A stretch of 64,000 nucleotides of DNA from an uncultured Candidatus Saccharibacteria bacterium (GCA_964491455.1 CAZBFM010000002.1:28947-92946), one strand, 5' to 3'. Shown: positions 33,031 through 63,400, counted from the stretch's first letter. Numbers and translations: made by a program. The notes: generated by a model not told the origin, from the sequence alone.

Positions 33031-33041
33031 GTATACCGCGG

Positions 33042-42182: not shown

Positions 42183-42375
42183 TTCTAATCTTACACAGTC
42201 AATTAGTTTCAGAGTGCGCTTTTGTTCCTAGCACCATGAACGGAACTCCGATTTCGCTGTCGGACCCAGCATAGTACGTACGCCGTGAGGCCCTTGCGGG
42301 TCGCGCGACGTACACCCTATATCGACTTCTTTTACCTTTCCCAAACTTCTCTCTACACGAAGTAGAAAGAATAGA

Positions 42376-43874
<1,499 letters not shown>

Positions 43875-44104
43875 CTTAAAAAGGAAACTTTCATTTCCCG
43901 GCTGAGAACTAATTGACTGTGTAAAATTGGAAATGTCCTGTTGGGCTGGACGAAGGTAGATATGCCTTCTTCAACAACACAACCCCGTATGCCTCCGTTG
44001 CAGAAGCATGCGGGGTTGGACTGTCTTTGTGCATTGTTTGGTGCCTTTCCCTCCTGGGTGTCGCTTTGGACTCCCTATCTACGGGGCAAGGGTCATTATA
44101 CACG

Positions 44105-45641: not shown

Positions 45642-48074
45642 TTACGATACGACAAGATTGAGCAGCCGCCCGGGAATATAGATAATCTTTCGAATCGTGA
45701 CACCTTCGCAGTGCTTTGCAATCATCGGATCAGCCATCGCACGACGCTGTGCCTCATCCTGCCCAGCCTTGGCAGGAATGGTGATGACGCCGCGGAGCTT
45801 TCCGTTGACCTGTACCGGCATCTGAATCTCATCGAGCACGAGGAGCGCAGGCGTATATGATGGCCACGGCTGAAGATGCACTGACGTTCTCTTTTTGAGC
45901 ACTCCTTGCCAGAGCTCATCGGTAAGATGTGGGACGAGAGGAGCAAGTATGCACAAGAAACGTTCGCGCTGTGGTTTGGTGAGCGTGGTGTTGGCCTCCT
46001 CAATCACATTGATGAGTTTCATGAGCTCGCTCACACAGGTATTCAACGACATCGCATTCAGATCGTCGCCGATCTTTTTGGTCGCCGCGTGCAGTGCACG
46101 CTCGACAATGGTGACAGGATTCTTATCTGCCGGTTTCTGGTAGAGGTTGAAGACGCGATTCAAGAATCGATAGACACCGTTGATGCCCTTCGGGTCCCAC
46201 GGACCGCCCTGCTCGTAGGGCGACATGAACGCCAAGTACATGCGAATCGTATCTGCGCCGAACTGGGCGACTTCCTTGTCAGGGTCGACAACGTTCCCTC
46301 TCGATTTTGACATCTTCTGTCCATCGGGCCCGAGAATGATGCCGTGGTTGCGTCGCGAGGTGAATGGCTCGATGAATTTCACGTAGCCCATATCGTGGAG
46401 CGCATGCGCGAAGAATCGCGAGTACAACAAGTGCATCGTGTTATGTTCGGCGCCACCGATATACATCGAAACAGGCGTCCACGCGACAAGCTTCTTGGGG
46501 TCGGCAAATTTCTTCTTGTTGGTGGGATCAGTATAGCGAAGATAGTACCAGCTCGAGTCGACAAAGGTATCCATCGTGTCCGTCTCTCGCTCGGCAGCAC
46601 CGCCACACTTCGGACACTTCACCTTGAGCCACTTGGTTGCCTTGGCGAGCGGACTGCGACCATCATCGGCGGGCTTGAAATCTTTGAGCGGTGGAAGCTT
46701 CACGGGCAAATCTTTCTCGGGCACAGGAACATGGCCACAGGCGGTACAGTTGATAACAGGAATGGGGACGCCCCAGTACCGCTGACGAGACAACACCCAA
46801 TCGCGAAGCTTGTAGGTGCGCTTTGGGCCACCCACACCGAGGTCGTGGAGCTTCTTGCCAATCATCGCCGACGCCTCGCTGCTGGTGCGCCCATTGTACG
46901 GACCTGAATTCACGAGAATACCCGCATCACTAAACACTGACGAGAGATCGTGATGCCCACCACCCACAGGCACAATCACCTGCTTCATTGCGAGATGGAA
47001 TGTCGACGCAAACTCAAAATCACGACTGTCGTGCGCAGGGACTGCCATAATCGCGCCGGTGCCGTAGGAGCCAAGCACATAATCGCCGACCCACACGGGC
47101 AAAAGCTCCGAGGTGAGCGGATGAATAGCATGCGCGCCAGTAGCAACGCCCGTCTTTTCTTTGCCGGCCTCCATACGATCAAGCTCGCGACGACCCAGCG
47201 CGCGAGAGACATAGTTCTTCACCTCTGCGGATGGTGACCATCCCACATCCATCCACTTCTTTGCCAGCTCCGGCGAGATAACCAAAAACGTCACGCCAAA
47301 GAGCGTATCTGGGCGCGTCGTAAACGTTTCCACGGTGTGTGCGTCATCGGTCTGTCCGGGAATACGCAAACGCCAGCGAATTGTGGCGCCGTCAGAACGA
47401 CCAATCCAATTCTGCTGCGCGACACGCGTAGCGTGTGGCCAGTCTAAATCCGTAAGCTGGTCGATGAGCTGATCGGCGTAGGCGGTCGTGCGCATCATCC
47501 ACTGCTCCAGCAGCTTCTGTTGCACCACTGCACCACAGCGCTCGCAGGAACCATCAACAACCTGCTCGTTGGCAAGCACCGTTTTGTCCTTGGGGCACCA
47601 GTTAACCATAGTCTTGGCGCGATACGCCAAGTCGCGTGCATGGAGCTTCAAAAACATCCACTGCGTCCACGCGTAGTACGCAGGATCGATAGTGGAAACG
47701 ACGCGCGAAAAATCAAACATCGTACCCATGCTCACCAACTGTTTGGTCATGTAGGCAATGTTCTGTTTGGTCCATGTTTCAGGATGGATATTACGCTGGA
47801 TGGCGGCGTTTTCCGCAGGAAGCCCGAACGCGTCAAACCCGATTGGATACATGACATTGTAGCCACGCATACGCCAGTAGCGAGCATACATATCCGGAAG
47901 CGCGAATGAATACCAGTGGCCCATGTGAAGATTCCCCGATGGATACGGGAACTCAACAAGAATCATCTTATTCTCCTTGCCTTTTACGCGATCGCGCGTC
48001 ACCGAGAGCTTTTTGGTAGCCCATACCTTTTGCCACTTTTTCTCGATTTTGGAGGGTTGATAGGTAGCCATCAC
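45642..48074 (-). CDS. leuS: Leucyl-tRNA synthetase.
   Basis: PYPSGNLHMGH (HIGH motif), QKMSKSRGN (KMSKS), CP1 editing-domain insertion, 810 aa. Confidence 0.95.
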   Translation of the reverse strand: MMATYQPSKIEKKWQKVWATKKLSVTRDRVKGKENKMILVEFPYPSGNLHMGHWYSFALPDMYARYWRMRGYNVMYPIGFDAFGLPAENAAIQRNIHPETWTKQNIAYMTKQLVSMGTMFDFSRVVSTIDPAYYAWTQWMFLKLHARDLAYRAKTMVNWCPKDKTVLANEQVVDGSCERCGAVVQQKLLEQWMMRTTAYADQLIDQLTDLDWPHATRVAQQNWIGRSDGATIRWRLRIPGQTDDAHTVETFTTRPDTLFGVTFLVISPELAKKWMDVGWSPSAEVKNYVSRALGRRELDRMEAGKEKTGVATGAHAIHPLTSELLPVWVGDYVLGSYGTGAIMAVPAHDSRDFEFASTFHLAMKQVIVPVGGGHHDLSSVFSDAGILVNSGPYNGRTSSEASAMIGKKLHDLGVGGPKRTYKLRDWVLSRQRYWGVPIPVINCTACGHVPVPEKDLPVKLPPLKDFKPADDGRSPLAKATKWLKVKCPKCGGAAERETDTMDTFVDSSWYYLRYTDPTNKKKFADPKKLVAWTPVSMYIGGAEHNTMHLLYSRFFAHALHDMGYVKFIEPFTSRRNHGIILGPDGQKMSKSRGNVVDPDKEVAQFGADTIRMYLAFMSPYEQGGPWDPKGINGVYRFLNRVFNLYQKPADKNPVTIVERALHAATKKIGDDLNAMSLNTCVSELMKLINVIEEANTTLTKPQRERFLCILAPLVPHLTDELWQGVLKKRTSVHLQPWPSYTPALLVLDEIQMPVQVNGKLRGVITIPAKAGQDEAQRRAMADPMIAKHCEGVTIRKIIYIPGRLLNLVVS

Positions 48075-48337
48075 TGGTACAGAGCGTAGCGCGAATTGCG
48101 CGATGTTTCAACTGGTGCCACGGACTTGCTTTAGATGCTCCAAGCGAGGATATCCTCGTGAAGAATATTTCGAGCTCGACGGAGCGAGAACGAAGAAATT
48201 CTACGAGCACGTAGAATTTCGTGTCTGAACAGGGATATCCGCGCTTAGGACTGAAACGAATGTAAAGAGAATCACAGCGCGAAAAGAGCCGGCTTTGAGG
48301 CGGCTCTTTTCGTTCACCAGACCCTTCTATGCTAGCA

Positions 48338-49063
48338 CTACTTCCCGACTATGACCAGAATGTTTGCGGTGGTTTTCGCCTCTCCCGTTGGAAGTGTCGA
48401 GACTGCTTTCACGCCAAAGATCTTCTCGAGTGCGGCAATTGCACCTGGATTCTTACCGCCTGACATATCAACAATAACAGTAGCAGTATAGATGCCCTTG
48501 GAGTCATTTGCGGTCGCACTCGTCACCCACGCATTCTTTTTAAGGTCGCTTGCTGTCTTACCTGCAAATCCCACCGTGGTGGTGCCGTTGCGAACTTCAA
48601 TGGTTACTTTTTCGGGAGCAACCGGTGTTGCGCTCGGTGTCGGTGTCAGTTGTGCGCTGCCTGACGCAATAGCATCTGGCGTCGGCGATGGTGTTGCAGT
48701 GTTTTGTGTAACCAGACCTACACCCACGAGCTTGTTGGTGATAGCGTCATAGATAATCATGCGCGTTGGATACACGATAAGAATATTGCCGTCGACGGCA
48801 TCCTGAAAGATGGCCTGCTGCTGTGCAAGTGCCGCGGCATCCTTGAGCACCACCACTGAAGGCCGCTCGTCATTGGGGACGACCATGAATTTGCTGATGC
48901 GCGCCACAACTGCATCCACCTGCGCCTCGGTAAGCTTGGTGCCAGGATTGGATGCGAGCTTTACAAGCTCATCTCCTGAACCAGAGCTAAACGTGTACCA
49001 CCCTCCAACTGCTACGACGACGACCACGACGACTCCAAGAATAATTTTGTAGGTTGTTTGCAT
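48338..49063 (-). CDS. Membrane-anchored protein with a conserved juxtamembrane domain (shared with 56037-56435 and 59982-60422) and a C-terminal LytR_C-like domain.
   Basis: N-terminal TM helix. The VVPNDERPSVVVLKDAAAL...ILIVYPTRMIIYDAITNKLVGV domain is homologous to the two paralogs. The C-terminal EVRNGTTTVGFAGKTASDLKKNAW...VIVDMSGG resembles the LytR cell-envelope-related C-terminal domain. Confidence 0.5.
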   Translation of the reverse strand: MQTTYKIILGVVVVVVVAVGGWYTFSSGSGDELVKLASNPGTKLTEAQVDAVVARISKFMVVPNDERPSVVVLKDAAALAQQQAIFQDAVDGNILIVYPTRMIIYDAITNKLVGVGLVTQNTATPSPTPDAIASGSAQLTPTPSATPVAPEKVTIEVRNGTTTVGFAGKTASDLKKNAWVTSATANDSKGIYTATVIVDMSGGKNPGAIAALEKIFGVKAVSTLPTGEAKTTANILVIVGK

Positions 49064-49153
49064 GAGATGAGCGACCTCCCTCCAGAGAGCGCATCGTTAT
49101 GAACGGGGCAATCATAGCACGCTGTTTTCGTACGGCCAGAGCACTTCTCCACA

Positions 49154-51229
49154 TTAGCGTCCTAACTTATAAAGCTGAGTGACTTCCGACGACGGCAGTG
49201 CACGGTTGTAGATGCGAACATCGTCAATCAAGCCAGGAAAGTAACGGACCCCTGTCTGCGAACCAATATGTAATTCAGAGGGAGTGGCGGGAGTAACCGC
49301 AGACGTATTTGCGGTCCGAACACCATCAACATACATGTATGTCGTGCCAGCATCACGAATCATGACAACATGATACCAGCGATTTGCGCTCGGAAAAGTA
49401 TACCCTGAATCAAAACGGGCCAGGCCAGAAAATAAGCCCTCTAGCTTTGAACCGCCACCACCAGATGCATTACCGATGCCAAACGAATATCCGTCCCCCG
49501 TTATCCCGTTATCTCTACCATTGGAAACAGCAATTACCTCGCCTGACGTAGGGAGCACAGAAGGATTTATCCACGCCGACATAGTCCAATTGTTAGTTGC
49601 GGTAGCCGATGTTGTCGAAAACGATATAGTATCATCTACCCCATCAAACTTCAGCGCCTGACCGAGCTGACCCATAATCGGACGGGGCAAGCCATTGGCG
49701 CCAGTAAGTGTGCCGTGGTTGAGGTTGGTTGTGGAGTCTTTTGCTTTCGTTGAGGTTAGATACTTGCCATCAAACGTCCAGTGACCAACGAGACCGGAAG
49801 CGAGACTCGTCCCTGTCTGAAGTTTTGCAGTCGAGGTATTTATTTTTACGACACCGGCATTATAGATGGCCGCTACTTCACCTGCCGACAATGCCCGGTT
49901 ATAAATACGTACCTCATCAATTGAGCCCGAGAAAACCTCTTGTAAAGCGCTCGAGCCAAGCGGCGTACTTGCGCCAATATAGAGAGGATCATCCGTATTT
50001 GCATTACCATTCGCAGTTCCGGTTATTGTCTGAGCACTGGCACCGTTCACGTAATACGTAACATTGAAACCAGACATAACCGCCACTACATGCGTCCAAG
50101 TATTCGTTGATAGCGTAATGGTGGTTGAGGTGTAATCTTTTACCGAAAACGTCGTAAACAACAGACCGGCACCGCTTGTTCCAAACGTAAATCCATTTGA
50201 TGTCACAGTTCGTGATGCGCCCACTATTCTGTGGATGCCTGAAAGATTCGTGCTATTTATCCATGCACTTACCGTTACGTTGGTTGTAAGAGATCCGATT
50301 GCAGTCGAAGTTCCTGCACTTACATAATCATTATTCCCATCAAAATTCAGCGCGCAAGAGCCACGCTTGCCGGCGACCCAGTTGGATGTGACGCCGGTGA
50401 GGGCGAAGTTGGTGAGCGTGCCTGTGTTGCCGCGACCAGAGTTGTCGGTGGCTTTGGTGAGTTTACAGTCTTCCATGCTCCAGTAGCCGACGAGGCCACG
50501 CGTGGTGGGCGCCACCGTTCGCGATGCTCCCCCGCTATAGAGTCGTGCAATCTCATTGCCTGTCAGCGCGCGATTGTACACGCGAACGTCATCAATGGAA
50601 CCAACAAAGAACCTTGACCCCGCTCCCGCCAAATAATTTGCCCTCCCTAGTTCTAGCGCACTACCGGAATCAACGCCTGGGCTACTTCCACGATTCCAAA
50701 CTCGTACTCCGTTTACAAACAACATGATGTCGGTACTTGTATACGTTGCTACAACATGCTGCCATACGTTCACAACCGCAGGCACACTCGTGTTTACGAG
50801 AACATTCCCGGCATGCACCTGAAATGTACCGGCGGTTATCTCAACACCCTTATCCCACTGACCATTATCCGTACACCAAAAACAGTGCGCCACGTCGATA
50901 GAGGTTGGCTTGATCCACAGAGCAACCGATACGGGCTCCGCGTCAAGGTTGAGGCCGGTATTAAGATAATCGTTTATCCCATCAAAATTGAGAGCGCATG
51001 CCCCCAGCTTGCCAGCGACCCAGTTGGATGTTGCACCGGTGAGGGCGAAGTTGGTGAGAGTACCGGTGTTGCCGCGACCAGAGTTGTCGGTGGCTTTGGT
51101 GAGTTTGCAGTCTTCCATACTCCAGTAGCCGACGAGGCCACGGGTGGTGGGAGGCTGCGTAATCCCAGCATGCGCAGAGGATGCGGAGAGGAGAAAGAAG
51201 AGCGATGTGATGAGGAAAAATCGTTTCAT
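49154..51229 (-). CDS. Secreted LamG/concanavalin A-like lectin (Laminin_G_3-type) repeat protein, copy 1.
   Basis: Signal peptide MKRFFLITSLFFLLSASSAHA. Three repeats of the LVGYWS.ED...D.SG.GN.GTL...GK.G.A..FDG..DY core typical of Laminin_G_3 domains. 691 aa. Confidence 0.75.
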   Translation of the reverse strand: MKRFFLITSLFFLLSASSAHAGITQPPTTRGLVGYWSMEDCKLTKATDNSGRGNTGTLTNFALTGATSNWVAGKLGACALNFDGINDYLNTGLNLDAEPVSVALWIKPTSIDVAHCFWCTDNGQWDKGVEITAGTFQVHAGNVLVNTSVPAVVNVWQHVVATYTSTDIMLFVNGVRVWNRGSSPGVDSGSALELGRANYLAGAGSRFFVGSIDDVRVYNRALTGNEIARLYSGGASRTVAPTTRGLVGYWSMEDCKLTKATDNSGRGNTGTLTNFALTGVTSNWVAGKRGSCALNFDGNNDYVSAGTSTAIGSLTTNVTVSAWINSTNLSGIHRIVGASRTVTSNGFTFGTSGAGLLFTTFSVKDYTSTTITLSTNTWTHVVAVMSGFNVTYYVNGASAQTITGTANGNANTDDPLYIGASTPLGSSALQEVFSGSIDEVRIYNRALSAGEVAAIYNAGVVKINTSTAKLQTGTSLASGLVGHWTFDGKYLTSTKAKDSTTNLNHGTLTGANGLPRPIMGQLGQALKFDGVDDTISFSTTSATATNNWTMSAWINPSVLPTSGEVIAVSNGRDNGITGDGYSFGIGNASGGGGSKLEGLFSGLARFDSGYTFPSANRWYHVVMIRDAGTTYMYVDGVRTANTSAVTPATPSELHIGSQTGVRYFPGLIDDVRIYNRALPSSEVTQLYKLGR

Positions 51230-51304
51230 GCGTTAACGCCCGAGATTATAGAGTTGGGTGATTTCTGCCGCGGAGAGTGCGCGGTTGTACACGCGGACGT
51301 CGTC
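51001..51304. repeat. Perfect direct repeat of about 304 bp (copy A). It spans the 5' 228 nt of LamG copy 1, the 3-bp junction and the 3' 72 nt of LamG copy 2.
   Basis: Identical base-for-base to 53080-53383 (offset 2079 bp, which equals the gene period). Confidence 0.9.
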
Positions 51305-53308
51305 AATCGTAGCGGCCATGTAGCCACCAGAGATTGATACCAGATTTGAAGTGCCTTCAATGAGTATGTTGGGCACCGTATACCCCGTATATGTCGCTCC
51401 AGCAACCACACTGCCGACTTCTACTCCATCTACATACGTCTTCGCAGTGGAGCCATTCGCCACGCCCATCACGTGTACCCATGTATTGAGCGGTATAGGT
51501 GATGCAGGTGCACTCGTAGTCTTCTGCGCACCATCGTACACATAGAAATATAGTCGCCCATCCGTATTTATGTAGAGATCCTTATCGTAGGTAGCAGCAC
51601 CAATACCATTCACAAATCCCGCGACCAACCCCTTTGCGGCGGGATAACTCGTCAGCTTCACCCACGCGGAGACCGTTACGGGTGAGGTGTTGACCACGTT
51701 CGATGAAATCACATAATCGTCGACGCCATCAAAACTAAGTGCCTGACCGAGCTGACCCATAATCGGACGGGGCAAGCCATTGGCGCCAGTAAGTGTGCCG
51801 TGGTTGAGGTTGGCGGTAGAGTCTTTTGCTTTCGTTGAGGTTAGATTGGCGCCGTCGAATGTCCAATGACCAACAAGACCCGACGCGAGGCTCGTGCCAG
51901 CCTGCAACGCCGCCGTCGACGCGTTGTATCGCGTTGCTGATGAATTATAGAGGTCGGAAATTTCATTGCCCGTCAGTGCGCGGTTATATACACGGATGTC
52001 ATCCAGGGAGCCAGCAAAATAGTAAGCACTTCGCCCGCCCATACTTAGTTGATTCACCGAGACGAAATTCGTGCTATCAGCAACGGTAGCTCCTTGCTGT
52101 ACGCCATCAAATAACATTCTATTTGATGACCCACTCCTCATCACCACCACATGATGCCACTTATTATCAAGGATTGCAGTGGCGGGTCTGCTATACACAT
52201 TGGTCGTTCCAAAGTGAGATTGTAAATATAGATCCGACAAATACATAACTATCCCCCAGTTTCCTGCTCCTGACCCGAACTGCGCAATAATTTCAGCGCC
52301 GACCGAGTCAAGACTTTTCATCCAAAATGCAATCGTGAAATCACCAGTGCCAAAAGTAAAATCTGTGGTTGAAGAAGTAAGAATCTGATCGTTTATCCCA
52401 TCAAAATTCAGCGCACACGCCCCCAGCTTGCCGGCGACCCAGTTGGAAGTGGCTCCGGTGAGGGCGAAGTTGGTGAGGGTGCCTGTGTTGCCGCGGCCAG
52501 AATCATCGGACGCCTTATTGAGCTTGCAGTCCTCAAAACTCCAATGACCCACCAGTCCACGGGTCGTTGCGGGCTTTGCACGTGACGACCCACCACCATA
52601 TAATCTCGCAATCTCATTGCCTGTCAGCGCGCGATTGTAGACCCGTACGTCATCCATGGAGCCCTGAAAAAAACGGAACGACTCTGCTGCGTTATACCAA
52701 TATCCCAGCTTAAGTGAATTAGCACTAAGAGCAACAGTTCCGGATCCCTGACCGACTATGACACCGTCAACATAGAAGGCGTAGGAGGAGCCACTTACTG
52801 TCACCGCCACGTGTTGCCACCTATTCAAGGTTATCACATTCGAGTTGGAGAGATAGCTTGTAGTTCCGGATCTCAACAAAAGACCCGAATTATTTGCATA
52901 AACGGCTAAAGCCATACCACCATCGCCGACGCCGGTTCCCTGATAAATAATGCCATTTGCCTGATTAGAGGCCCCGTATCGAGCAGGGTTAATCCAAGCG
53001 CTCATGGTAAATACACCGGAAGTGAGCACTTGAGAGCTCGACACGTAATCAGTGGTCCCATCAAAATTCAGCGCACACGCCCCCAGCTTGCCAGCGACCC
53101 AGTTGGATGTTGCACCGGTGAGGGCGAAGTTGGTGAGAGTACCGGTGTTGCCGCGACCAGAGTTGTCGGTGGCTTTGGTGAGTTTGCAGTCTTCCATACT
53201 CCAGTAGCCGACGAGGCCACGGGTGGTGGGAGGCTGCGTAATCCCAGCATGCGCAGAGGATGCGGAGAGGAGAAAGAAGAGCGATGTGATGAGGAAAAAT
53301 CGTTTCAT
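51233..53308 (-). CDS. Secreted LamG/concanavalin A-like lectin repeat protein, copy 2.
   Basis: The same architecture as copy 1. The first 76 codons are nucleotide-identical to copy 1. 691 aa. Confidence 0.75.
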   Translation of the reverse strand: MKRFFLITSLFFLLSASSAHAGITQPPTTRGLVGYWSMEDCKLTKATDNSGRGNTGTLTNFALTGATSNWVAGKLGACALNFDGTTDYVSSSQVLTSGVFTMSAWINPARYGASNQANGIIYQGTGVGDGGMALAVYANNSGLLLRSGTTSYLSNSNVITLNRWQHVAVTVSGSSYAFYVDGVIVGQGSGTVALSANSLKLGYWYNAAESFRFFQGSMDDVRVYNRALTGNEIARLYGGGSSRAKPATTRGLVGHWSFEDCKLNKASDDSGRGNTGTLTNFALTGATSNWVAGKLGACALNFDGINDQILTSSTTDFTFGTGDFTIAFWMKSLDSVGAEIIAQFGSGAGNWGIVMYLSDLYLQSHFGTTNVYSRPATAILDNKWHHVVVMRSGSSNRMLFDGVQQGATVADSTNFVSVNQLSMGGRSAYYFAGSLDDIRVYNRALTGNEISDLYNSSATRYNASTAALQAGTSLASGLVGHWTFDGANLTSTKAKDSTANLNHGTLTGANGLPRPIMGQLGQALSFDGVDDYVISSNVVNTSPVTVSAWVKLTSYPAAKGLVAGFVNGIGAATYDKDLYINTDGRLYFYVYDGAQKTTSAPASPIPLNTWVHVMGVANGSTAKTYVDGVEVGSVVAGATYTGYTVPNILIEGTSNLVSISGGYMAATIDDVRVYNRALSAAEITQLYNLGR

Positions 53309-53383
53309 GCGTTAACGCCCGAGATTATAGAGTTGGGTGATTTCTGCCGCGGAGAGTGCGCGGTTGTACACGCGGACGTCGTC
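53080..53383. repeat. Perfect direct repeat of about 304 bp (copy B), at the LamG copy 2/copy 3 junction.
   Basis: Identical to 51001-51304. Confidence 0.9.
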
Positions 53384-55489
53384 GAGAGAGCCGTTAAAAA
53401 TGTAGCGCTGATTTGCATTCGCAACATCGGCATCGCTGCCGATTCGAATAGGCCCCGAAGGCGCGTACGACGATAAGCCCGATCCCGTATTATTCAGCAC
53501 ACCGTTTATGTATAAACTCAGCGTTGTACCATCATTTACTCCAACAACGTGCGTCCATGTATCTGCAACGGGTGTGTCCGTTTGCGTCACCGTCGAGTTA
53601 CCAGCTGCATTTGAAGATCGAACCGTAAAACTAATTTTGCCACTCGAACCACCACCATCACACACGCCAAATTTAAGTATATAGGCAGACCAGGAGGTGT
53701 TTCTATTACCGTTATTGACGATAACTTGACTGCCAGTAACTACGCGCGGATTAACCCAGGCCGAAACGGTTTCAATCGTTGGTTTTAATAACGCATTATC
53801 TGCAATAGTTACAAGGTCATCCACTGCATCAAACTGTATTCCCTGACCAAGTCGCCCTGCCACAGGTTTTGGGAGGCCGTTGGTGCCAGTAAGTGTGCCA
53901 GTATTGGCATTACCACTTGAATCAAGTGCGGTAGTCGCAGTGAGAGTTGGCCCATCAAACGTCCAGTGACCGACAAGGCCGGATACAAGATTAGTGTTGT
54001 TATCGAGCGTCGCAGTGGAGACGCCAAGCTTCGTGGCCCCTGCGGTGTAGAGCGCGGCCACCTCTGGGGCAGAGAGTGCGCGATTGTACACGCGAACGTC
54101 GTCGAGAGATCCGAACATACGATACGCCGTTGATCCATTGCCATGCGTGCCGATAAAAGTATTCGACCCAAGACCGGTCCATCCAATCGATGTCGCATTA
54201 CTACCTGACTGAGCCAACACACCGTCGATGTATAGCCGCTGGGCATTTGCTACGTCATCATAGGTATACACATAATGATGCCAATCAGCAGTAGAAACTG
54301 CTCCCGAAGTAATTATCGCCCATGTAACCCCAGTGTAAAAAGCACCAATCGCGTTTGCGTTTTGAAGACGCAACGTCACATGATCACCCAAAGAAATAAT
54401 CTCGTCCTCTGAAGCATCCGCAGTTTTTCGTGCCCAACCAGCTACGGTAACATCAGTTGGGGTACCAAGAAGTCCAGTGATCTGAACATAATCATCCGTG
54501 CCATCAAACTTTAATGCGCATGAGCCTCGCTTTGCGGAGCCCCCGCTCACCCAATTGGAGGTGTTGCCCGTCAGAGTAAAATTGGTGAGCGTGCCAGTAT
54601 TGCCACGCCCAGAGGAGTCGGTGGCTATTGAACCCCTGCAATCCTCCATACTCCAGTAGCCAACCAGACCTCGCGTGGTCGAGCCAGTGACTCTCGAGGC
54701 GCCGGAGTTGTAGAGACTAGCAACTTCAGCTGTTGTGAGCGCACGGTTATAGATTCGAACGTCATCAAGTGCACCATTTAGAGGAGCAGAAGTGCCATCG
54801 GCGTCTAAGCCAATCCTTAAATTCACATCGTTTAAAATAGTATTCCCCGCGAGAGCATCAGCGGTGGTTGTTGTGGAAATCGCAGATCCATCCATGTAAA
54901 GCGTCATTCCGCTCGCAGCGCCAGAGCCTGTATACACCCCCATAACATGCACCCACGCATTCGCACGCCAAGCAGCAGTTGCCCTTTTCCTTATGTGAAT
55001 TGCAGATTGCGCATTATTCGAGATGCTCATCTGAAGCAGCCCGGACGAACCAATGAGAGAAAACCCCCTTGCAGCGGTATCTGTAGTAGTCTTATTCACA
55101 ATTGTCATCGAGGACGCCGCATTAGCAGGTTTCACCCATGCAGAAATTGTAAATGGTTGCGTAGAATCAAAATCAAAATTTGTTTCGATGGCAGTAGAAA
55201 TATAATCATCCGTACCACCGAAATTCAACGCACACGAGCCTCGCTTTGCGGAACCTCCAGACACCCAATTAGACGTTGCGCCCGTCAAGGCAAAATTTGT
55301 AATAGTGCCCGTGTTGCCCCGCCCAGAGGAGTCGGTTGCTTTACTACCTCGACAATCTTCCATGCTCCAGTAAGCAACAAGACCGCGATTATCCATTGGT
55401 CTCGTGATGCCTGCGAGAGCAGTGGGAACTTTAGCCACGAAAAAACCAACCAGCAGTGCAATAAAGAAAAAACGCCTTAAAATTTCCAT
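53312..55489 (-). CDS. Secreted LamG/concanavalin A-like lectin repeat protein, copy 3.
   Basis: Signal peptide and three LamG-like repeats. The C-terminal 23 codons are identical to those of copy 2. 725 aa. Confidence 0.75.
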   Translation of the reverse strand: MEILRRFFFIALLVGFFVAKVPTALAGITRPMDNRGLVAYWSMEDCRGSKATDSSGRGNTGTITNFALTGATSNWVSGGSAKRGSCALNFGGTDDYISTAIETNFDFDSTQPFTISAWVKPANAASSMTIVNKTTTDTAARGFSLIGSSGLLQMSISNNAQSAIHIRKRATAAWRANAWVHVMGVYTGSGAASGMTLYMDGSAISTTTTADALAGNTILNDVNLRIGLDADGTSAPLNGALDDVRIYNRALTTAEVASLYNSGASRVTGSTTRGLVGYWSMEDCRGSIATDSSGRGNTGTLTNFTLTGNTSNWVSGGSAKRGSCALKFDGTDDYVQITGLLGTPTDVTVAGWARKTADASEDEIISLGDHVTLRLQNANAIGAFYTGVTWAIITSGAVSTADWHHYVYTYDDVANAQRLYIDGVLAQSGSNATSIGWTGLGSNTFIGTHGNGSTAYRMFGSLDDVRVYNRALSAPEVAALYTAGATKLGVSTATLDNNTNLVSGLVGHWTFDGPTLTATTALDSSGNANTGTLTGTNGLPKPVAGRLGQGIQFDAVDDLVTIADNALLKPTIETVSAWVNPRVVTGSQVIVNNGNRNTSWSAYILKFGVCDGGGSSGKISFTVRSSNAAGNSTVTQTDTPVADTWTHVVGVNDGTTLSLYINGVLNNTGSGLSSYAPSGPIRIGSDADVANANQRYIFNGSLDDVRVYNRALSAAEITQLYNLGR

Positions 55490-56040
55490 GAACCTACGAC
55501 GGCGCTCATCTCTAGCTCAGCGTCGGGTGAGCCAGTGATTTGATACAAATACCCTTCATGCGTAAACCAAACCTCACGAGTACTACTCCCCGATGCATCT
55601 TTGCTCTTAAATACCAGTGCCTTAGCCCCTTGTACGACAACGGATTTTGCCCCCTCCACAATCACGTCCGGTGCGTCTTGCTGAATGCGAGCCTTGGTGA
55701 CCTCGAACTGCTCATCTTGAGGCGTGATGTAGATCTGAAAATTCTTGAGCAAGATTGTCTCACTCACATCATCCCGAATATCACCGGGTGTGCATCCCGC
55801 ACAATCAAACGAAAAAGAAGGCTTTTCGTGGACGTATCGCTTTCCACGGATTTCCCCTTTTCCGAGCGCCACCAGAGGCTCTGCTGGATTCTCCAAATCT
55901 CCATCTTCGCTAGGAGAAATTGCCACCAACGGATTGTCGGGAAGCTTAAAACCATCATTTTTCTTGGCAATCGCCCAATACCCCACCCCTGCCAGAACTA
56001 CGAGCGTGCTTATAATATAGAAGGCCTTGTTGATTTTCAT
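55477..56040 (-). CDS. Membrane-anchored hypothetical protein, first gene of the LamG operon.
   Basis: N-terminal TM (FYIISTLVVLAGVGYWAI) and a roughly 150-aa extracytoplasmic domain with a CAGC pair. It overlaps the LamG copy 3 start. Confidence 0.45.
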   Translation of the reverse strand: MKINKAFYIISTLVVLAGVGYWAIAKKNDGFKLPDNPLVAISPSEDGDLENPAEPLVALGKGEIRGKRYVHEKPSFSFDCAGCTPGDIRDDVSETILLKNFQIYITPQDEQFEVTKARIQQDAPDVIVEGAKSVVVQGAKALVFKSKDASGSSTREVWFTHEGYLYQITGSPDAELEMSAVVGSWKF

Positions 56041-56435
56041 GGTTTATTTGGCGTGGGAGATGGCGTTCCGATGGTAAGCGGAGCAATATCAATGATGCGT
56101 TTCAATGTGGGGCTATACAAAATCGCCTTCCGGGCGGTGTTATAGATAATCACCTTATCCCCTAGATGCGCATTGGCAAACAATGGCTGCCCACTCAATG
56201 CCTTCAAATCCGTCACGGTTGCAATAACCGGCTCCTCTCCCGTGGGGAGCACCACAAGCTTACTCACCTCTGCGAGGAGATCAGCGGTAGTATAGGTAGA
56301 CTTGGTATCGCGACCTAACAGAACGCGAAGCTGCGCGCGATACAACCACGCCCCGCCGATAAGCGCCACAAGAAGAAGCAACACTACCCAAGGATATATT
56401 CGGGGTTTTCCTGAAATGATTTGTTGGCCGTTCAT
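56037..56435 (-). CDS. Small membrane-anchored protein, a paralog of 59982-60422 and of the N-terminal domain of 48338-49063.
   Basis: TM helix plus LPTGEEPVIATVTDLKALSGQPLFANAHLGDKVIIYNTARKAILYSPTLKRIIDIAPL. The same block appears in the other two copies. Confidence 0.55.
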   Translation of the reverse strand: MNGQQIISGKPRIYPWVVLLLLVALIGGAWLYRAQLRVLLGRDTKSTYTTADLLAEVSKLVVLPTGEEPVIATVTDLKALSGQPLFANAHLGDKVIIYNTARKAILYSPTLKRIIDIAPLTIGTPSPTPNKP

Positions 56436-56614
56436 ATCATGACATGGTTGGAATACTCAATAATTATAAGCTTTCGATTAGCGTTGGCAACGCTTCATCG
56501 GTTGCCAATCGTAGTATGTAGAAATCGCAGCGCAAAAAAAATACGTGCAGCGCATTTCTTATTTTGAAATATATATTCTTCTCTTTATTTTCATGTTTAT
56601 GTGAGGATATTTCC

Positions 56615-58198
56615 TCAGATAAGAGCGCTACCCGTCATCTCCTTGGGTATTTTGATGTTCAGGAGCTTGAGAATCGTCGGGGCTACATCGATGAGGGATC
56701 CTGTTGATTCCCTCCGTGCCAATGATTCAATACTTTCGCCTTCTTGACCCTGCTGCACCTCGGGAAGCACAAATACGATTGGCACAGAGCGCGTCGAATG
56801 CTGCGTGTCTTCCCCGCCCGTGAATGGATCAAGTAATTCTTCAGCATTTCCATGGTCTGCCGTGATAATAAGCGCTGTATCACCTCGCTCCAACGCCGCA
56901 TTGGCTATTTGCCCGATGCAATCATCGACAACACGCACCGCTCGCTCGGTTGCTGCTAGATTTCCTGTATGCCCTATCATGTCGAGATTGGCGAGGTTAA
57001 CCGCGTACAAAACCGCATCATCATTGAGTCGCTCGATCAGCGTGCTTGTTATCTCTCGCGCCGACATCTCAGGATGTACCACGTATTGGTCCCCCCTCAT
57101 GAATCGAGAAGCGACGATGCAACGCCGCTCTCCATCGCTGGGCGTCATCCGTCCCCCGTTCAAAAAGCTAGTCACATGAGCTTCTTTCTCTTTTTCCGCA
57201 ATTCTCCACTGTCGTATGCCCGCATTACTTATCACCTCTCCCAATGTATTGGGTGGTGGAGCAGATTCATAGGCAACGGGGCATGAAAAATCACTTCCAT
57301 ATCGCGTCATGGTAACAATCATAAGGTTCGCTGGTCGAATTCTGAGCGGAAATGCTTGAAATGTGGCCGATTCAATGAATGGCGTGGCGAGTTGTTGGGC
57401 TCGATCGCTGCGAAAATCGTAGAAAATTACTGCATCATTATCTTGAACGGGCCCAATTGGCTTACCTTGAGAAACCACCGTTGCCGGGTCAATTGCATAG
57501 TCCCCCACGCCCTTCTCGTAGTTTGATTGCACATATTCCTGAGGATTTTCGATAGGCGGAGCATTTCCGTCGACAATCGCACGCCACACTTGCTCGGTAA
57601 GCTTCCAATTGAGCACTCTATCCATCGCAAAAGACCGCCCTTGCACGGATGCGATGCTGGCTCCGGACCGCCTCAGGTGAGGCTCTAGCATAGTGAGGAC
57701 CTGTATTGCATCCTGCGCTGGCATGTCTTGCCCGTCCGCTATGACATGAACAAAGACCTTCTTGAGGTTATGTCGTTTTGCTAATTCCAGAAGCGCAATT
57801 AGGTGATCCGTGTGCGAGTGAATCCCCCCTGGACTGGTACAACCGATAAGATGGAGTGCGGAATTGTGTTTTTTGGCGTGTGTAATTGCTTTTAAGAGCG
57901 CCTCATTGGTATAAAAATCGCCAGAACGTATCTGCGTGTGAATATGCGCCAAATCTTGCACCACCACCCTCCCACAACCAAGCGCAGTATGACCGACTTC
58001 GCTGTTTCCCGGCTCGCCCCAAGGAAGCCCCACAACAAGCCCTGATGCCGTAAGGGGCATAGAGACGTGCTTGGTCAGTAAGTCTTCAAGGTGAGGCATT
58101 CCAGCCCGCAGGATGGCATTTCCGGGGCCATCTGGAGCGAGCCCGAACCCGTCGATGACAAGTAGGATTACTTTCTTGAAGTTCGTTGATGATTTCAT
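56615..58198 (-). CDS. gpmI: 2,3-bisphosphoglycerate-independent phosphoglycerate mutase.
   Basis: VILLVIDGFGLAP N-terminus, catalytic Ser region (LIGCTSPGGIHSH), metal-binding DHGNAE and ITADHGN motifs. 527 aa. Confidence 0.9.
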   Translation of the reverse strand: MKSSTNFKKVILLVIDGFGLAPDGPGNAILRAGMPHLEDLLTKHVSMPLTASGLVVGLPWGEPGNSEVGHTALGCGRVVVQDLAHIHTQIRSGDFYTNEALLKAITHAKKHNSALHLIGCTSPGGIHSHTDHLIALLELAKRHNLKKVFVHVIADGQDMPAQDAIQVLTMLEPHLRRSGASIASVQGRSFAMDRVLNWKLTEQVWRAIVDGNAPPIENPQEYVQSNYEKGVGDYAIDPATVVSQGKPIGPVQDNDAVIFYDFRSDRAQQLATPFIESATFQAFPLRIRPANLMIVTMTRYGSDFSCPVAYESAPPPNTLGEVISNAGIRQWRIAEKEKEAHVTSFLNGGRMTPSDGERRCIVASRFMRGDQYVVHPEMSAREITSTLIERLNDDAVLYAVNLANLDMIGHTGNLAATERAVRVVDDCIGQIANAALERGDTALIITADHGNAEELLDPFTGGEDTQHSTRSVPIVFVLPEVQQGQEGESIESLARRESTGSLIDVAPTILKLLNIKIPKEMTGSALI

Positions 58199-58200
58199 GG

Positions 58201-59136
58201 CTATAGTGCTACTTTTTCAGTAATCCACCCCTTCGATGATTGTATATTTACCGCCACCTGTCGCTGAGGAAGCACATCAGAAGGCGTAGATACGCGGATT
58301 TCGAATCTTCCCTTTTGGCACATGAGGATATACCTGCCCTGTTCATCGCTCACCGCATACCCCACACGAGTCCCCTGCGTAGTATGTAGCGTAATGAGAG
58401 CATAGGGCAGGCCGAGTCCCGTGTGAACATCCACAATGAGACCAAATGGCGCGCCTATGAATCCCCAAATACGCAAGCTGACTAGCCCAGCAAAAACAAA
58501 AACCAATCCAGCAGTAAAAAATCCAGGCATAATGACAAAGCTCAGTGGTATAGAGAGTAATCCAAGCAAAAGACTACCATCCGCAACGAGCGCAACCAGA
58601 GCACCCTTTTGAATAGCCGGTATTGCGCTGCGAGTACGCGCGATCTCGCTGCCCTTAGAATCGAGGGGTATATCGTAATTAATAGCCTCCCCACTGGCTA
58701 AAACGAATTGCTCGCCTCGATAAGGCGCACCGAAGATCGCACTCCGCATCACAGAATCATGAGCGGACGGAAAGACAAAGCCAGGAGCAGCAACAAATAA
58801 CTTCGCAAAACACGACAAATCAGGAGATGTTGCTACTCTACCCAAAAACTCATAGCGCCCAAAACGATCGGTAATTTGCGACTCAAGTGGTCTCTGACTT
58901 TCATCACGAAGCTCAACGCGAGCAAAAGGCAATGGCATCAACGTTCGCGAATCGTAGACAACGCCCCAGGCCGTCTTCCTTCCGGGCAAGAGCTGCACCA
59001 CACGGACAACCCTTTTGATCACAAATAAAGCAAAGTTGCGAATACGAAATAGCGTCACTTTCATGCGATAAGTATACCACCAAAAGCAAAACTGAATGCA
59101 CACGGTAGCACAGAACAACAGGGACAAAATTCCCAA
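58201..59136 (-). CDS. Membrane protein with carboxypeptidase-regulatory-like beta-sandwich domains.
   Basis: ARVELRDESQRPLESQITDRFGRYEF and GYAVSDEQGRYIL (CarbopepD_reg-like GxYxF pattern), plus at least 3 TM helices. Confidence 0.4.
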   Translation of the reverse strand: MGILSLLFCATVCIQFCFWWYTYRMKVTLFRIRNFALFVIKRVVRVVQLLPGRKTAWGVVYDSRTLMPLPFARVELRDESQRPLESQITDRFGRYEFLGRVATSPDLSCFAKLFVAAPGFVFPSAHDSVMRSAIFGAPYRGEQFVLASGEAINYDIPLDSKGSEIARTRSAIPAIQKGALVALVADGSLLLGLLSIPLSFVIMPGFFTAGLVFVFAGLVSLRIWGFIGAPFGLIVDVHTGLGLPYALITLHTTQGTRVGYAVSDEQGRYILMCQKGRFEIRVSTPSDVLPQRQVAVNIQSSKGWITEKVAL

Positions 59137-59278
59137 AATAGCTGTAATTTACCTATTTACACCTACATAGTTATCGTTACTACTTGTTACTATAGTTACC
59201 TATAGCAATCGCGCGATTTTGCATGATCGAATCTGCATATTCGCGCACGCGCAACGCTGGAGATGAGAGATCGCGGCG

Positions 59279-59896
59279 CTAGCCCAACTTGAAAAGCCGA
59301 CGGAGGTCCTCATCGTAATCGATGTCATATGTCGTGATGCTTCGTGCGTACTTTCGCATCAGAGGATCAGCGAGCAACTTAACGAGGTAACCGGGAAGCT
59401 TGTGCGGCCAGACCCACATACTTCTCTGGAACTCGATGAATCCTTGTCGCTTTAATACACCGCGAAGATAATCGCGGATCGGCCTCTTCGATTCGGGAAC
59501 GTCGAATAACACAATGCGCCACCTTCCATCCCAATGCGTCGCAGCAGTCGAAGATCCCTTTGGCTTTTTCTCTGCCACGGTGTGCTCCATTCGGATGTAT
59601 GCCTTCAAGGCAATGTACTCTCCGGCAGACGTGAGCTCATAGGCATGGTCCGCGTCGCGAACTACCGAGCGCCGGCGCTTCAGTCGGGCTAGTGCAGTAT
59701 AAAAACTATTCTCACTTCGTTGCGCACCCAATAGTCGTACGTGTGGGTGCGCCCGAATCTGATCAAATGTTGCCCTCCCCTTTTGCGAGAGAATAAGGAG
59801 GATTATTTGAGCAACGGAAATATCCGGTCGTAGGACAGAGCCACCCGTCCTGCCAGATGCACGTGACTCTGCGCCGCTCGTTGCCGTATTATCCAT
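59279..59896 (-). CDS. PaaX-family-like transcriptional regulator (wHTH plus Cas2-like C-terminal domain).
   Basis: An N-terminal winged-helix segment (ILLILSQKGRATFDQI), then WDGRWRIVLFDVPESKRPIRDYLRGVLKRQGFIEFQRSMWVWP, typical of the PaaX C-terminal domain. Confidence 0.55.
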   Translation of the reverse strand: MDNTATSGAESRASGRTGGSVLRPDISVAQIILLILSQKGRATFDQIRAHPHVRLLGAQRSENSFYTALARLKRRRSVVRDADHAYELTSAGEYIALKAYIRMEHTVAEKKPKGSSTAATHWDGRWRIVLFDVPESKRPIRDYLRGVLKRQGFIEFQRSMWVWPHKLPGYLVKLLADPLMRKYARSITTYDIDYDEDLRRLFKLG

Positions 59897-59981
59897 CTAT
59901 GGAGCATACACCAACGGCATTGTTAGGCCATCGAATACTGTTGATAAACTGTCAATTATTCACGTTCCGCTGATTACAAAA

Positions 59982-60422
59982 CTAGCGCTTCGTACTCGGT
60001 TCCGGGGTTGGTTGCTGAGGAGGATTGATATTGAGTGCAGTAACATCGATAATGCGCTGCTCACTGGGACGATAGAGGATCGCCTTTTTTGCGGTGTTAT
60101 AGATAAGCACCCTGTCCCCCTTCGTCGCGTAGACGAAAAACGGCTGATCCCTGAGCTTCTCTGGGTCAGTAATTGTTGCCATCACCGGCTCCTCTCCTTC
60201 CGGTAGACGGAAGATTTTGCTCACCGCAGCAACGACATCCTGTACCGTCTGCTCCTTCTTTGCCTGCTGATCCCCTGGTACGCCACGAGTTCCTTGAGTT
60301 AATAGGTAGGTCCCTCCCGCAACCACAATCAGAATCGCACTGACAATGGCCAGGTACTTCTGGGTCCTGGAGAAACCCCGCACACGATCGGCTTGCGCTG
60401 CAATGAATACGTTGAATTTCAT
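59982..60422 (-). CDS. Small membrane-anchored protein, paralog of 56037-56435.
   Basis: TM helix plus LPEGEEPVMATITDPEKLRDQPFFVYATKGDRVLIYNTAKKAILYRPSEQRIIDVTAL. Confidence 0.55.
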   Translation of the reverse strand: MKFNVFIAAQADRVRGFSRTQKYLAIVSAILIVVAGGTYLLTQGTRGVPGDQQAKKEQTVQDVVAAVSKIFRLPEGEEPVMATITDPEKLRDQPFFVYATKGDRVLIYNTAKKAILYRPSEQRIIDVTALNINPPQQPTPEPSTKR

Positions 60423-60459: not shown

Positions 60460-63400
60460 CTATATCTCAGGGGTTGGCGTTGGTGTAGGCGTCACGTCTG
60501 GGGTTGCTTCAGGGGTTGGCGTTGGTGTAGGCGTCACGTCTGGGGTTGCTTCAGGGGTTGGCGCAATAATGATCCGAGCATTGGTGATCGCCAACGAAAT
60601 CCAGCTCAATGGGATATCGATAGTTGATGGTTTGTTGAGCACAATAGTGAAGCCTCGCGTGCTCTTCTTGGAAATCACGTACCGAATATCGTCAGTGAAC
60701 ACGGCCTGCTCAAGATCCGCCGAGTCGCTTGCTTCATCGAATGCAATCGCAGCGTTCACAACAGGCTGCTGTAGATATTCCTGCTCAAAGCTAATACTGA
60801 CACTCGTAGCACCCGCAGGGATAATAGCGAATCCGCCGGAATCTGCGTTGAAGTATGGTCGTCCAAAGAAATACGTACTTCCCATAAAGGTCGTGGCCTC
60901 TCCGACAGATGATATCGAATCTACTCGGAGTCCTCCAATAATCGTGATTGGCCCACTAAACTCAAGTGATTCAGACTGAGCAATCAGCGCAGCAATATCT
61001 ATCGTAGCGGCGCTCTGACTCGCCACGGACGCCTCAAGTGTTTCGAATCGATACGTGAGCAAATCAATCTCAGCGCTCTGACTGGCGAGCTGCTGAGCCA
61101 TGAGGCCGTCGAGATTTGTCACCATAGCGCGAAGATCACCAAATACCTGCTCAAACTGCGTCGACATCGATGCAATTTGCCCGCTGGCATTCTCAAGCCC
61201 GACAATACTTGATGCTTGAATCGATCGCGCGACGAGATCTCCGGCAAAGTAGGCATTTCCTTCGTTATCGATGCTCACCACAACCTCCGATGCTGAAACA
61301 GATGCTGCGGTACTAAACGACGTCGAGAGCGCGTTTGCACCGTTGCTCGTAATGATAAATCGTCCATCTTCTGCAAGCTTCACTTCAAGCTCCTTGTCTG
61401 TCGGCTCAAATGCGCGGGCGACAACGGTATCTGCCACGACGCGTGGAGTAATGACTTCCAAGCCGGCAACCACGCGATCCGTGAAGAGCTCAGAAAGCTC
61501 TGTTTCCTTGGTGATGCTCTCCTTATCCTGAATCATTTGCGCCAAAATCACACGTCCCATATCTGCATTCTCTGGGATTTCGGAAAGCACGACACCTTGA
61601 TGCGCCATAACGGACTTAAGGTTTGCTCCTGTTGAATACGTGGTATGAATGGAAACCAAGACCTCGCCGATGACTCCGGGTTCAGCATCGTAGTCCTCCA
61701 TGGCAGAGCCGATGATTGAACCTGCTTTATCCGTTCGCACCGCAACACCTGGGATGCTCGATGCCGTGAGACTATCGCCGGCCTTAATCGCGCCATTCGC
61801 CGTCGAAACGCGCACCGGAACACGTCCACTCAACGCTACTGGTCGTGGATTGATGGCGTTATCGGTGATGTCGTTACCAATGATGTACTCTGGATTTGTC
61901 GCAATAACACCAAATATCTTATCTCCGGCAACGGCTGGTTTGAGTTTTGCTGCTGTGTGCTCAACGCCACGCTTGTCGGTGTAGGTGAACATCTCATCGC
62001 TATACGCTACGATATCGGCAAAACTCGCCGATCCATCCGTCTCATACCACTCGGCATAGTCAGCGCCAGACTTCTTGCCACCAACGCCACCGGTGTATGC
62101 CCAGACGATGACTGCACCGTTTGCTCCAGCACCGAATACACCCGTTGGCTCCGATCCACCGCCGCCACCACCACCCGGAACCGTACCGGCGACACCATTC
62201 TTTGCCTGACCTGTAGCAGCACAGCCACTACTTCCAGCGCCACCAGCACCACCAAACGGACTGCTACCTCCTGCACCACCACCCGAACAATCCAGCGCAA
62301 AAGAGTGGCCACCGCTGCTGCCTGCGATATTGATTGTTCCGACAGATCCCGCTGTTCCACCAGCACCACCAGTGACCGTGACGTGTGCAGCTGCTCCATT
62401 TGCCTGAATCTTCAAATCGCCCTTAAAGTTACTATTCGTTCCTGCAGTTCCCGACGTTGCACCTCCCGTACCAACAGCAACATCGATAGTCGAAGCTGAA
62501 ACACCAACAATACTCGATGCATACGCTCCACCACCCCCACCAGCGCCAGACGTATTCGAGCCAGCAGTTATACCAGCAGCTCCAGCACCCCAGACCTCAA
62601 CGGATACCGACGCAACGTCATTGGGGCGCGTCCAACTGTTACTGCCAGGAGTTGTGAATACCTGCACCGAGCGAATACTAAATCCACGCGTACAGGAGAA
62701 CTTGCCACCGTTACTACCGGATGCCGTGTACTGCACCACCTGACTGGCATCGTCACAATCGGTAAGTCCTGCGCCAAAGAGCTTGGAGACGGATGCCGTA
62801 CCCGTGACTTCGAGGTTCGTTGAAAGCGATGCGCCCGTGGGAAGCAATGTCATCAAGATATTCGAAGCCTGGAAGCCACCCGCAGCGAACTTCAGGCCAA
62901 CGGTGCTAGATGAGCTCGCCGTGCCAAGGACCAAGTCGCCTGTCTGCGTGTACAAGTATCCATCATGCGCACCAGCCGCTCCGTATTGACCCCAGCGGAA
63001 TGCCGAATTATTAATACCCAAATCAAGATAGTTCGTGGAATCAGTGCCGTCATTTGCCGTAATCACCAAATCCATCGACGCACTCGCGCCGGCGCTCAAG
63101 TTCTGGAGGTTTACCTGCGCATACGAGTTCACATTCGCACCGATCGACATTGGATTATTCGGTAGACTAACGATGTCAACGCCCACATCCATGCGAGTAA
63201 TGGAGGCCATCGGCGCAATCAGCCCCGCGCTAAATGTGTTGACCGCAGACCATGTGTTCGCCATCGCACGAGAAGCGGGACCGTTGGTGTAGTCGAGATT
63301 GAGATCGAGGTAGCCATTAGAAATATCGAGATTGAATGCTGTTCCGTGGAACGAAACGGATGAAACCCGATTTCCATCTGGAGTATCAGTGCCGACATCG

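Follow-up and report, generated by a model that had tools for sequence, protein, structure and literature searches.

In phages, the gene of an assembly factor is classically a small one that comes right after the fibre gene, and in fibres bearing an intramolecular chaperone (IMC; Peptidase_S74, Peptidase_G2) this C-terminal domain nucleates trimerisation. Polymorphic-toxin and contact-dependent-inhibition loci consist of a giant exoprotein gene followed by one or several small immunity genes. We describe here a family of small proteins often encoded just behind giant genes in Patescibacteria, a group that makes up a large share of bacterial diversity, whose cultivated members live attached to other cells and whose attachment-surface proteins are mostly unannotated. 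The family was studied from a stretch of 64,000 nucleotides (nt) of an uncultured Candidatus Saccharibacteria bacterium (GCA_964491455.1, CAZBFM010000002.1:28947-92946), hereafter the window, which encodes three members of 146, 132 and 241 amino acids (aa). They are membrane-anchored envelope or accessory proteins with a new domain. Our preferred and still tentative reading, with a probability of about 0.45, is that the family is an extracytoplasmic, membrane-tethered adaptor that would anchor or assemble secreted giant fibres.

Several described systems resemble parts of this locus. In Mycobacterium tuberculosis, the only species for which such roles are known, wall permeability is maintained by VirR (Rv0431) and Cei (Rv2700), the first of which binds LytR-CpsA-Psr (LCP) ligases through its LytR_C domain (PMC11832169). 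Like them, the 241-aa protein has an N-terminal anchor and an extracytoplasmic LytR_C domain without the LCP catalytic domain. It is however the only window copy to do so, VirR and Cei do not have the family-defining block, LytR_C is missing from most giant-linked members, and the hosts are Patescibacteria and not Actinobacteria. The giant gene beside the 146-aa copy, with its IMC-type domains and a tail-fibre PHROG match, recalls phage tail-fibre and tailspike genes that end in an intramolecular chaperone. Unlike phage tail-fibre assembly genes, the family has no PHROG match and no relative among IMG/VR viral contigs (two peptide patterns), grounds on which a phage origin was rejected; its proteins are membrane-anchored with an external domain, and its module lies on the chromosome, with cohesin and dockerin genes among its parts. 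The usual place of the family gene, between the giant and a dockerin gene that precedes genes for cohesin proteins anchored by a transmembrane (TM) segment, is reminiscent of the cohesin-dockerin anchoring of cellulosome-type scaffoldins, but the block itself is not one of these two domains, the window contains neither gene, and no glycoside hydrolases are involved. As in toxin/immunity pairs, a giant secreted-protein gene is followed by one or more small genes; here, however, both partners are conserved, and the small protein, predicted to be extracytoplasmic, also occurs fused to LytR_C in housekeeping contexts. Finally, the family differs from the bitopic alignment proteins PilN/PilO and GspL/M in its lack of a Pfam match (none to PilN, PilO or GspM at E<=1 among 63 members) and in its absence from the pilus-like cluster of the window.

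A folded domain shared by three window proteins

The three genes are encoded on the minus strand, as is the entire region from 48 to 64 kb (all coordinates are positions in the window). Two are short members, of 146 aa (59982-60422) and 132 aa (56037-56435), and the third is a long member of 241 aa with a LytR_C fusion (48338-49063). All follow a common plan, one N-terminal TM helix and then a block of ~75 aa. The 146-aa protein begins with a short, predicted cytoplasmic stub, followed by the TM helix (aa 19-37, nt 60312-60368), a linker of ~20 aa, the conserved block (aa 59-132, nt 60027-60248) and a Pro-rich tail. The 132-aa protein has a TM helix and the block at aa 50-122 (nt 56070-56288). 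In the 241-aa protein the TM helix is followed by a divergent version of the block (aa 48-117, nt 48713-48922), which reads VPNDERPSVVVLKD...IFQDAVDGNILIVYPT--RMIIYD, then by a disordered Pro/Thr linker (aa 121-146) and LytR_C (aa 153-241, nt 48341-48607). Pairwise BLASTP gives 46% identity over 119 aa between the 132- and 146-aa proteins (E=4e-33), and 27% over 133 aa between the 241- and 146-aa proteins (E=1e-9). A hidden Markov model (HMM) of the block was derived from 60 metagenomic homologues without any window sequence. With E-values expressed for a nominal database of 1e6 sequences, it recognizes the 146-aa (1.8e-33), 132-aa (1.8e-27) and 241-aa (3.1e-9) proteins and, at E<=1e-5, no other window open reading frame (ORF) of at least 40 aa; the neighbouring 187-aa protein in particular gives no match. 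A preliminary description of this DNA had proposed a three-member paralogue family here: all three ORFs are present, and the BLASTP and independent HMM results agree with it. The consensus string it offered fits the 132- and 146-aa copies, but the 241-aa copy departs from it.

The preliminary description had also not recognised the block as a named domain and had proposed structure prediction as a check. AlphaFold2 (AF2), run for the 146-aa protein with a 63-sequence alignment, gives a confident fold: behind the TM helix and a disordered spacer stands a compact alpha/beta domain with a predicted local distance difference test score (pLDDT) of ~95 over aa 60-130. Its elements follow the order helix, strand, short helix, three strands, the last forming a meander. 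The divergent block of the 241-aa protein shows the identical order, with pLDDT 70-78. When the three window proteins and the 63 aligned members were searched against Pfam (Pfam-A 2025), the block remained without a match, LytR_C being found in 15 members. It matches nothing in NCBIfam 20 or PHROGs v4, and its profile reaches a best E of about 1 against PDB sequences. Foldseek comparison of the block model likewise gave no significant neighbour, either in the PDB (best E=0.22) or among the viral structures of BFVD (best E=7.8e-3, with a root-mean-square deviation of 10 Å). We found nothing in the literature describing this domain. The ~75-aa block is thus a real, folded domain, nameless in the libraries searched.

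Several possible relatives of the block were considered and rejected. It is not a degenerate or duplicated LytR_C: hhalign comparison of 148 blocks with their own LytR_C segments gives probabilities of 0.1-1%. A relationship with the C-terminus of the giants, or with the cohesin or dockerin proteins, was also rejected by hhalign. The label 'FliL' carried by one homologue at JGI is a TM-region artefact, as are weak, sub-threshold Pfam matches to SurA_N_3, DivIC and SpoIIIAH among the members. A 'helix-LPxGE-strand' motif was seen twice, where the block begins and where LytR_C ends (window 60190-60250 and 48341-48430; fused homologues P0062-P0209). It corresponds to a 7-residue hhalign match and also appears as a weak second BLAST segment (E=0.06); it may reflect shared ancestry or a shared binding element.

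The family is very large. A search of 1.84 billion 50%-identity clusters with a family profile that included the LytR_C columns matched 7233 representative proteins at E<=1e-3, of which 3159 reach E<=1e-30; the top 150 matches are TM+block+LytR_C proteins of about 225-340 aa that span the block and LytR_C parts alike. A single peptide pattern is enough to find relatives in 224 GTDB species. Every reliably labelled homologue comes from metagenome-assembled genomes of the candidate phyla radiation (CPR, Patescibacteria). The titles of many GTDB records that contain family members together with CPR-type giants read 'uncultured Gammaproteobacteria' or 'uncultured Pseudomonadales' bacterium (TPA_asm), for example those of loci L020, L028, L034, L036 and L038; such titles are probably wrong, and taxonomic counts by record name are unreliable. 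Two forms can be distinguished, short forms of about 120-180 aa such as the 132- and 146-aa copies, and long LytR_C-fused forms of about 225-250 aa such as the 241-aa copy. A single hydrophobic 19-mer precedes the block in 103 of 104 members, and the K/R bias lies toward its N-terminal side in 54 members versus 21. The predicted cytoplasmic N-terminus is short, variable and not conserved. From the K/R bias, the single pre-block segment and the fusion to LytR_C, which is extracytoplasmic in characterised relatives (PMC11832169), we infer an N-in, C-out topology that would place the ectodomain outside the membrane. These are bitopic envelope proteins, Patescibacteria-wide as far as the labels show.

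Linkage to giant genes and a conserved surface module

The 146-aa gene starts 37 nt after the stop codon of a giant Gly-rich, fibre-like protein gene (60460-64000, minus strand, continuing past the window end), identified by Pfam, PHROGs and neighbour clustering. This ORF shows no in-frame stop up to the window edge and therefore encodes at least 1179 aa (the listed ORF of 1158 aa is a minimum). It matches Gly_rich_2 and, at 1e-19, the tail-fibre PHROG 863. Its C-terminal ~530 aa (aa 620-1157 of the listed ORF) are common to the giants of family loci, and this conserved module is predicted to comprise an IMC-type autoproteolytic domain, then a coiled coil and, at its very end, a lectin-like part. 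Pfam searches of 33 giant C-terminal regions found Peptidase_S74 in 4 (best E=4e-20), Peptidase_G2 in 6 and H_lectin in 5. Complete giants begin either with a Sec signal peptide or with a helix-turn-helix (HTH) plus a TM segment; they have no C-terminal TM helix and end in low-complexity tails. The HTH-headed giants (in L027, L035, L038 and L049, and at L005:1-1505) start with a MerR/HTH_17-like motif and have their TM segment at about aa 110-180, which would mean a cytoplasmic DNA-binding head on a giant extracellular protein.

The linkage was examined in two sets of loci. In the first, genes were called in 83 non-redundant loci with a codon-usage-scored caller seeded with family matches, which gave 104 family genes; the controls were small genes of the same loci lying more than three genes from a family gene. 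A same-strand gene of at least 1000 aa stands immediately upstream of 24 of 100 family genes and of none of 213 controls (Fisher p=1.6e-13), in a set whose loci were ranked by similarity to the giant-linked 146-aa copy, a bias that the reciprocal test offsets only partly. Genes reaching at least 1000 aa are rare among distal genes (4 of 477). Most gaps between the giant's stop and the start of the family gene are below 80 nt, and tandem runs of two or three family genes are common behind giants. Linkage depends on the form: it concerns 27 of 80 short forms versus 2 of 24 LytR_C-fused forms. The reciprocal set consisted of 80 metagenome loci fetched solely with the giant's terminal 119-aa module (10-sequence alignment). 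Among the 69 unique loci with at least 1 kb of downstream sequence, a same-strand family block was found within 2.5 kb downstream in 42 (61%), and somewhere within about 6 kb in 51. Against an assumed chance rate of 1.25%, chosen by us and meant as generous, 42/69 corresponds to a binomial p of ~1e-61. The pairing of giant and family gene is thus frequent and not obligatory. The preliminary description had proposed, as a check, co-occurrence statistics with LamG or giant-protein genes across genomes; for the giant genes, both sets show the linkage.

The neighbours of the family genes form a recurrent module. One cluster comprises the giants, including that of the window: 39 giants in 37 loci, at position -1 or -2 relative to the family gene, with a median of 1777 aa and a shared C-terminus. 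Proteins of ~431 aa with FN3, Big_6 and Dockerin_1 domains (Dockerin_1 match in 22 of 32) are encoded at position +1 in 34 loci, and proteins of ~380 aa with a C-terminal TM segment (Cohesin match in 14 of 44) at positions +2 to +4 in 22 loci. In all 34 dockerin gene loci the family gene is also present, always upstream of the dockerin gene. The usual order is a giant, one to three family genes, an FN3/Ig/dockerin protein and two cohesin proteins with a C-terminal TM segment; genes for a response regulator and a histidine kinase (clusters 3 and 6) often precede the giant. The family gene is a core, order-fixed member of this module. It was seen across loci L006-L085 and L089-L168, for instance at L006:7574-13803 and L032:5781-13507. 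The cohesin and dockerin neighbours imply a modular surface assembly tethered to the membrane. We found no description in the literature of a module of giant, small TM, dockerin and cohesin proteins, nor specifically of CPR giant fibre proteins or CPR cohesin-dockerin modules. The window and L001 depart from the usual order, with a CarboxypepD_reg membrane protein in place of dockerin and cohesin proteins behind the giant and family genes.

The recurrence of response-regulator and histidine-kinase genes two to three genes upstream of family genes could suggest a signalling component, a bitopic sensor or anti-sigma-like protein reporting envelope or fibre status to the two-component system. A few members also give weak matches to Sigma_reg_N, DivIC and SpoIIIAH-type bitopic proteins; these Pfam matches fall below threshold and involve only the TM and helix region, and there is no evident output domain because the cytoplasmic N-terminus is short and not conserved. 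This explanation is poorly supported, and we consider it highly improbable. The same holds for an immunity or self-protection function against an activity of the giant's C-terminus, as in polymorphic-toxin or contact-dependent-inhibition loci, which has little chance of being correct. The position is right for it, immediately downstream of a giant secreted protein and often with one to three tandem copies. However, the C-terminus of the giants is conserved and shows IMC, coiled-coil and lectin-like features and no toxin domain, an argument from architecture as no PADLOC or toxin-family search was made. Moreover the small protein, too, shows strong conservation between phyla; it is held in the membrane with its domain outside, has LytR_C-fused paralogues and also occurs far from giants.

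A possible adaptor for giant fibres, or a cell-wall factor

A dedicated accessory role for the giant family, part of what the preliminary description had proposed, is a reasonable inference from the conserved, reciprocal linkage across Patescibacteria; the other part, the connection with the LamG operon, was not conserved (see below). As an adaptor, the short form would work as follows. Its ectodomain would be a membrane-tethered docking or assembly platform in the fibre module. It could capture the conserved C-terminal module of the giant, the last part to leave the translocon, and the captured chains would then be held together at the membrane for assembly, or be anchored there. The small protein could in this way retain the fibre, the giant having no anchor of its own at its C-terminal end. 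A long form would link the same ectodomain to the LCP wall-assembly machinery through its LytR_C, carried on the Pro/Thr linker. The protein-protein contact in the module is a proposal drawn from gene context and architecture.

Several observations weigh against this adaptor reading, besides the ranking of the first locus set. About two thirds of the short forms in that set are not directly behind a gene of at least 1000 aa, some having a giant one gene further upstream. About 40% of the giant loci have no family gene in the immediate 2.5 kb downstream. Two of the three window copies are not beside a giant gene, and the Peptidase_G2 IMC match of the window giant is sub-threshold (Pfam, 17 bits versus 25). 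Finally, the high conservation of the block over divergent CPR lineages and the housekeeping LytR_C fusion fit a wall ligand at least equally well.

This last point belongs to the main rival of the adaptor reading, according to which the family is a general factor of cell-wall homeostasis whose ectodomain binds peptidoglycan, a wall polymer or LCP ligases, the linkage with giants reflecting envelope co-expression only. The preliminary description had noted a LytR_C-like domain in the C-terminal half of the 241-aa protein, and Pfam indeed finds PF13399 at aa 153-241 (E=2.1e-8). The 132- and 146-aa proteins give no LytR_C match in Pfam, and the same search of the window proteins gave no match to the LCP catalytic domain (PF03816, LytR_cpsA_psr). 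The LytR_C part is modelled by AF2 with pLDDT ~90 over aa 153-239. Its best PDB neighbours by Foldseek are the C-terminal domain of Rv0431/VirR (2m5y, E=5.5e-4) and an orthologue of Rv2700/Cei (6q10, E=7.7e-3), and it weakly matches the NCBIfam Cei model. The protein does not have a 'solo' LytR_C architecture, an extra folded block of ~75 aa being present between the TM helix and LytR_C, and it would extend the concept of such envelope proteins beyond Actinobacteria. The 241-aa copy belongs to a distinct orthologous group of 55 clusters with 49-98% identity. In the three long contigs available (3/3), its orthologues (50-75% identity) lie directly upstream of LeuRS-KhpA-TrmD.

The wall factor thus accounts for the housekeeping neighbourhood of the 241-aa orthologues, for the resemblance of their LytR_C to VirR and Cei, and for the fact that the highest-scoring representative matches are of the TM+block+LytR_C form. 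Saccharibacteria encode LCP+LytR_C enzymes (PMC10633639, supplement), and the block is 40-60% identical across distant CPR classes, as would be expected for a universally conserved ligand. The wall factor leaves unexplained, however, the invariant order of giant, family gene and dockerin gene (34/34), the 61% reciprocal adjacency, the fact that linkage is carried by short forms without LytR_C (27/80 versus 2/24) and the tandem arrays of two or three short copies behind giants. We hold it to be rather unlikely as an account of the whole family. For the long form, by analogy with VirR and Cei, a coupling to wall-assembly enzymes is probable.

The adaptor reading can be taken further. The block may be the membrane receptor or assembly platform of an undescribed, Patescibacteria-wide apparatus made of a Sec-exported, trimeric giant fibre with a phage-type IMC end and a cohesin-dockerin pair, an extension that we regard as doubtful. 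If it were true, the apparatus would be a strong candidate for the organelle by which these episymbionts attach to their hosts, and the platform would be connected to wall synthesis through its LytR_C-fused paralogue. Several 'hypothetical proteins' become in any case a testable module, the question being whether the small protein holds or assembles the fibre. Dockerin-domain and other adhesin-like proteins are essential for the epibiotic growth of a Saccharibacterium (PMC10633639), which makes genetic tests feasible. A direct transfer to the family of the transposon-sequencing result obtained for the essential dockerin SEML1_0315 of S. epibionticum was rejected, no small TM gene being annotated beside SEML1_0315.

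The LamG operon and other genes of the window

The preliminary description had placed the 146-aa gene behind the giant, the 132-aa gene at the opening of a LamG operon and the 241-aa gene at its close, a layout with which coordinates and gaps agree. The genes are transcribed in the order giant, 146-aa, 205-aa, 311-aa, iPGM, 132-aa, 187-aa, three LamG, 241-aa and LeuRS, all on the minus strand. The 132-aa gene is preceded by a gap of 179 nt with a promoter-like site (TTGCCA-16-TATAAT, 56463-56490), the best of the region, which rests on 11/12 consensus matches only. Its stop overlaps by 4 nt (ATGA) the start of the gene for a 187-aa protein (55477-56040) with one N-terminal TM helix and no known domain, homologues of which stand beside family genes in L012 and L044. 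Three tandem genes (49154-55489) follow for secreted LamG proteins of 725, 691 and 691 aa, each with a Sec signal peptide and three Laminin_G_3 domains. The two 691-aa genes (49154-51229 and 51233-53308) are 3 nt apart and differ at 3 of the 90 N-terminal residues shown, the product of a recent tandem duplication within the operon. Then, 90 nt past the third LamG gene, comes the 241-aa gene; a terminator-like hairpin with an 11-bp stem (48195-48220), a consensus match only, stands between it and LeuRS (45642-48074).

This arrangement is what led to the idea that the family is a dedicated accessory framing LamG surface-protein operons. In the window, a copy stands at either end of the operon, whose ends carry promoter- and terminator-like sites, and a 7-kb contig of GCA_020049755.1, assembled independently from the same organism, repeats this gene order. 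A jackhmmer search started from the window LamG proteins found, however, no LamG homologue in the 83 other family loci. None was found beside the 241-aa orthologues either, where the upstream sequence covered 10 kb in L170, about 1.2 kb in L169 and about 0.7 kb in L171, and their conserved neighbour is LeuRS. Since these orthologues sit before LeuRS-KhpA-TrmD without LamG, it is by a local accident that the 241-aa copy comes at the close of the operon. The 132-aa copy has its closest relatives among the short forms of canonical modules with giant and dockerin genes. The neighbourhood of family and LamG genes is thus specific to this window, and a LamG-specific accessory was rejected as a general rule: as such the framing is largely refuted, and this poorly supported reading now appears very unlikely. 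The broader suggestion that copies of the family punctuate surface-structure operons did not hold, as the type IV pilus-like cluster of the window (about 23-32 kb) contains none.

Between the 146-aa gene and the 132-aa gene lie three further genes. A 205-aa protein with a PaaX_M match (59279-59896, E=9e-18; the Cas2-like middle domain of PaaX) is encoded in a gene wedged between the 146-aa gene and that of a multi-TM CarboxypepD_reg protein of 311 aa (58201-59136); the 205-aa protein may regulate transcription of the module locally. The third gene is listed as iPGM, 2,3-bisphosphoglycerate-independent phosphoglycerate mutase (56615-58198).

The type IV pilus-like cluster extends over ~21441-32418 on the plus strand, with no family gene nearby. 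Among its products are a 7TM histidine kinase (21441-23099), a T2SSE ATPase that carries a response-regulator receiver domain as a fusion (23526-25256) and a prepilin-type (N_methyl) protein of 608 aa that has a CarboxypepD_reg domain (26289-28115). The 16S rRNA gene at 42375-43881 (minus strand) is complete and isolated, with no 23S gene in the window, and a tRNA-Ile(GAT)/tRNA-Ala(TGC) pair, usual residents of the rRNA spacer, is located at 32957-33113 (minus strand), about 9 kb from the 16S; this looks like an unlinked rRNA arrangement. Copper and heavy-metal genes at 5678-9356 (plus strand) and 11757-13787 (minus strand), which lie beside a membrane H+-pyrophosphatase gene and include those of a DsbD_2/HMA/cupredoxin protein and an HMA P-type ATPase, are ordinary content.

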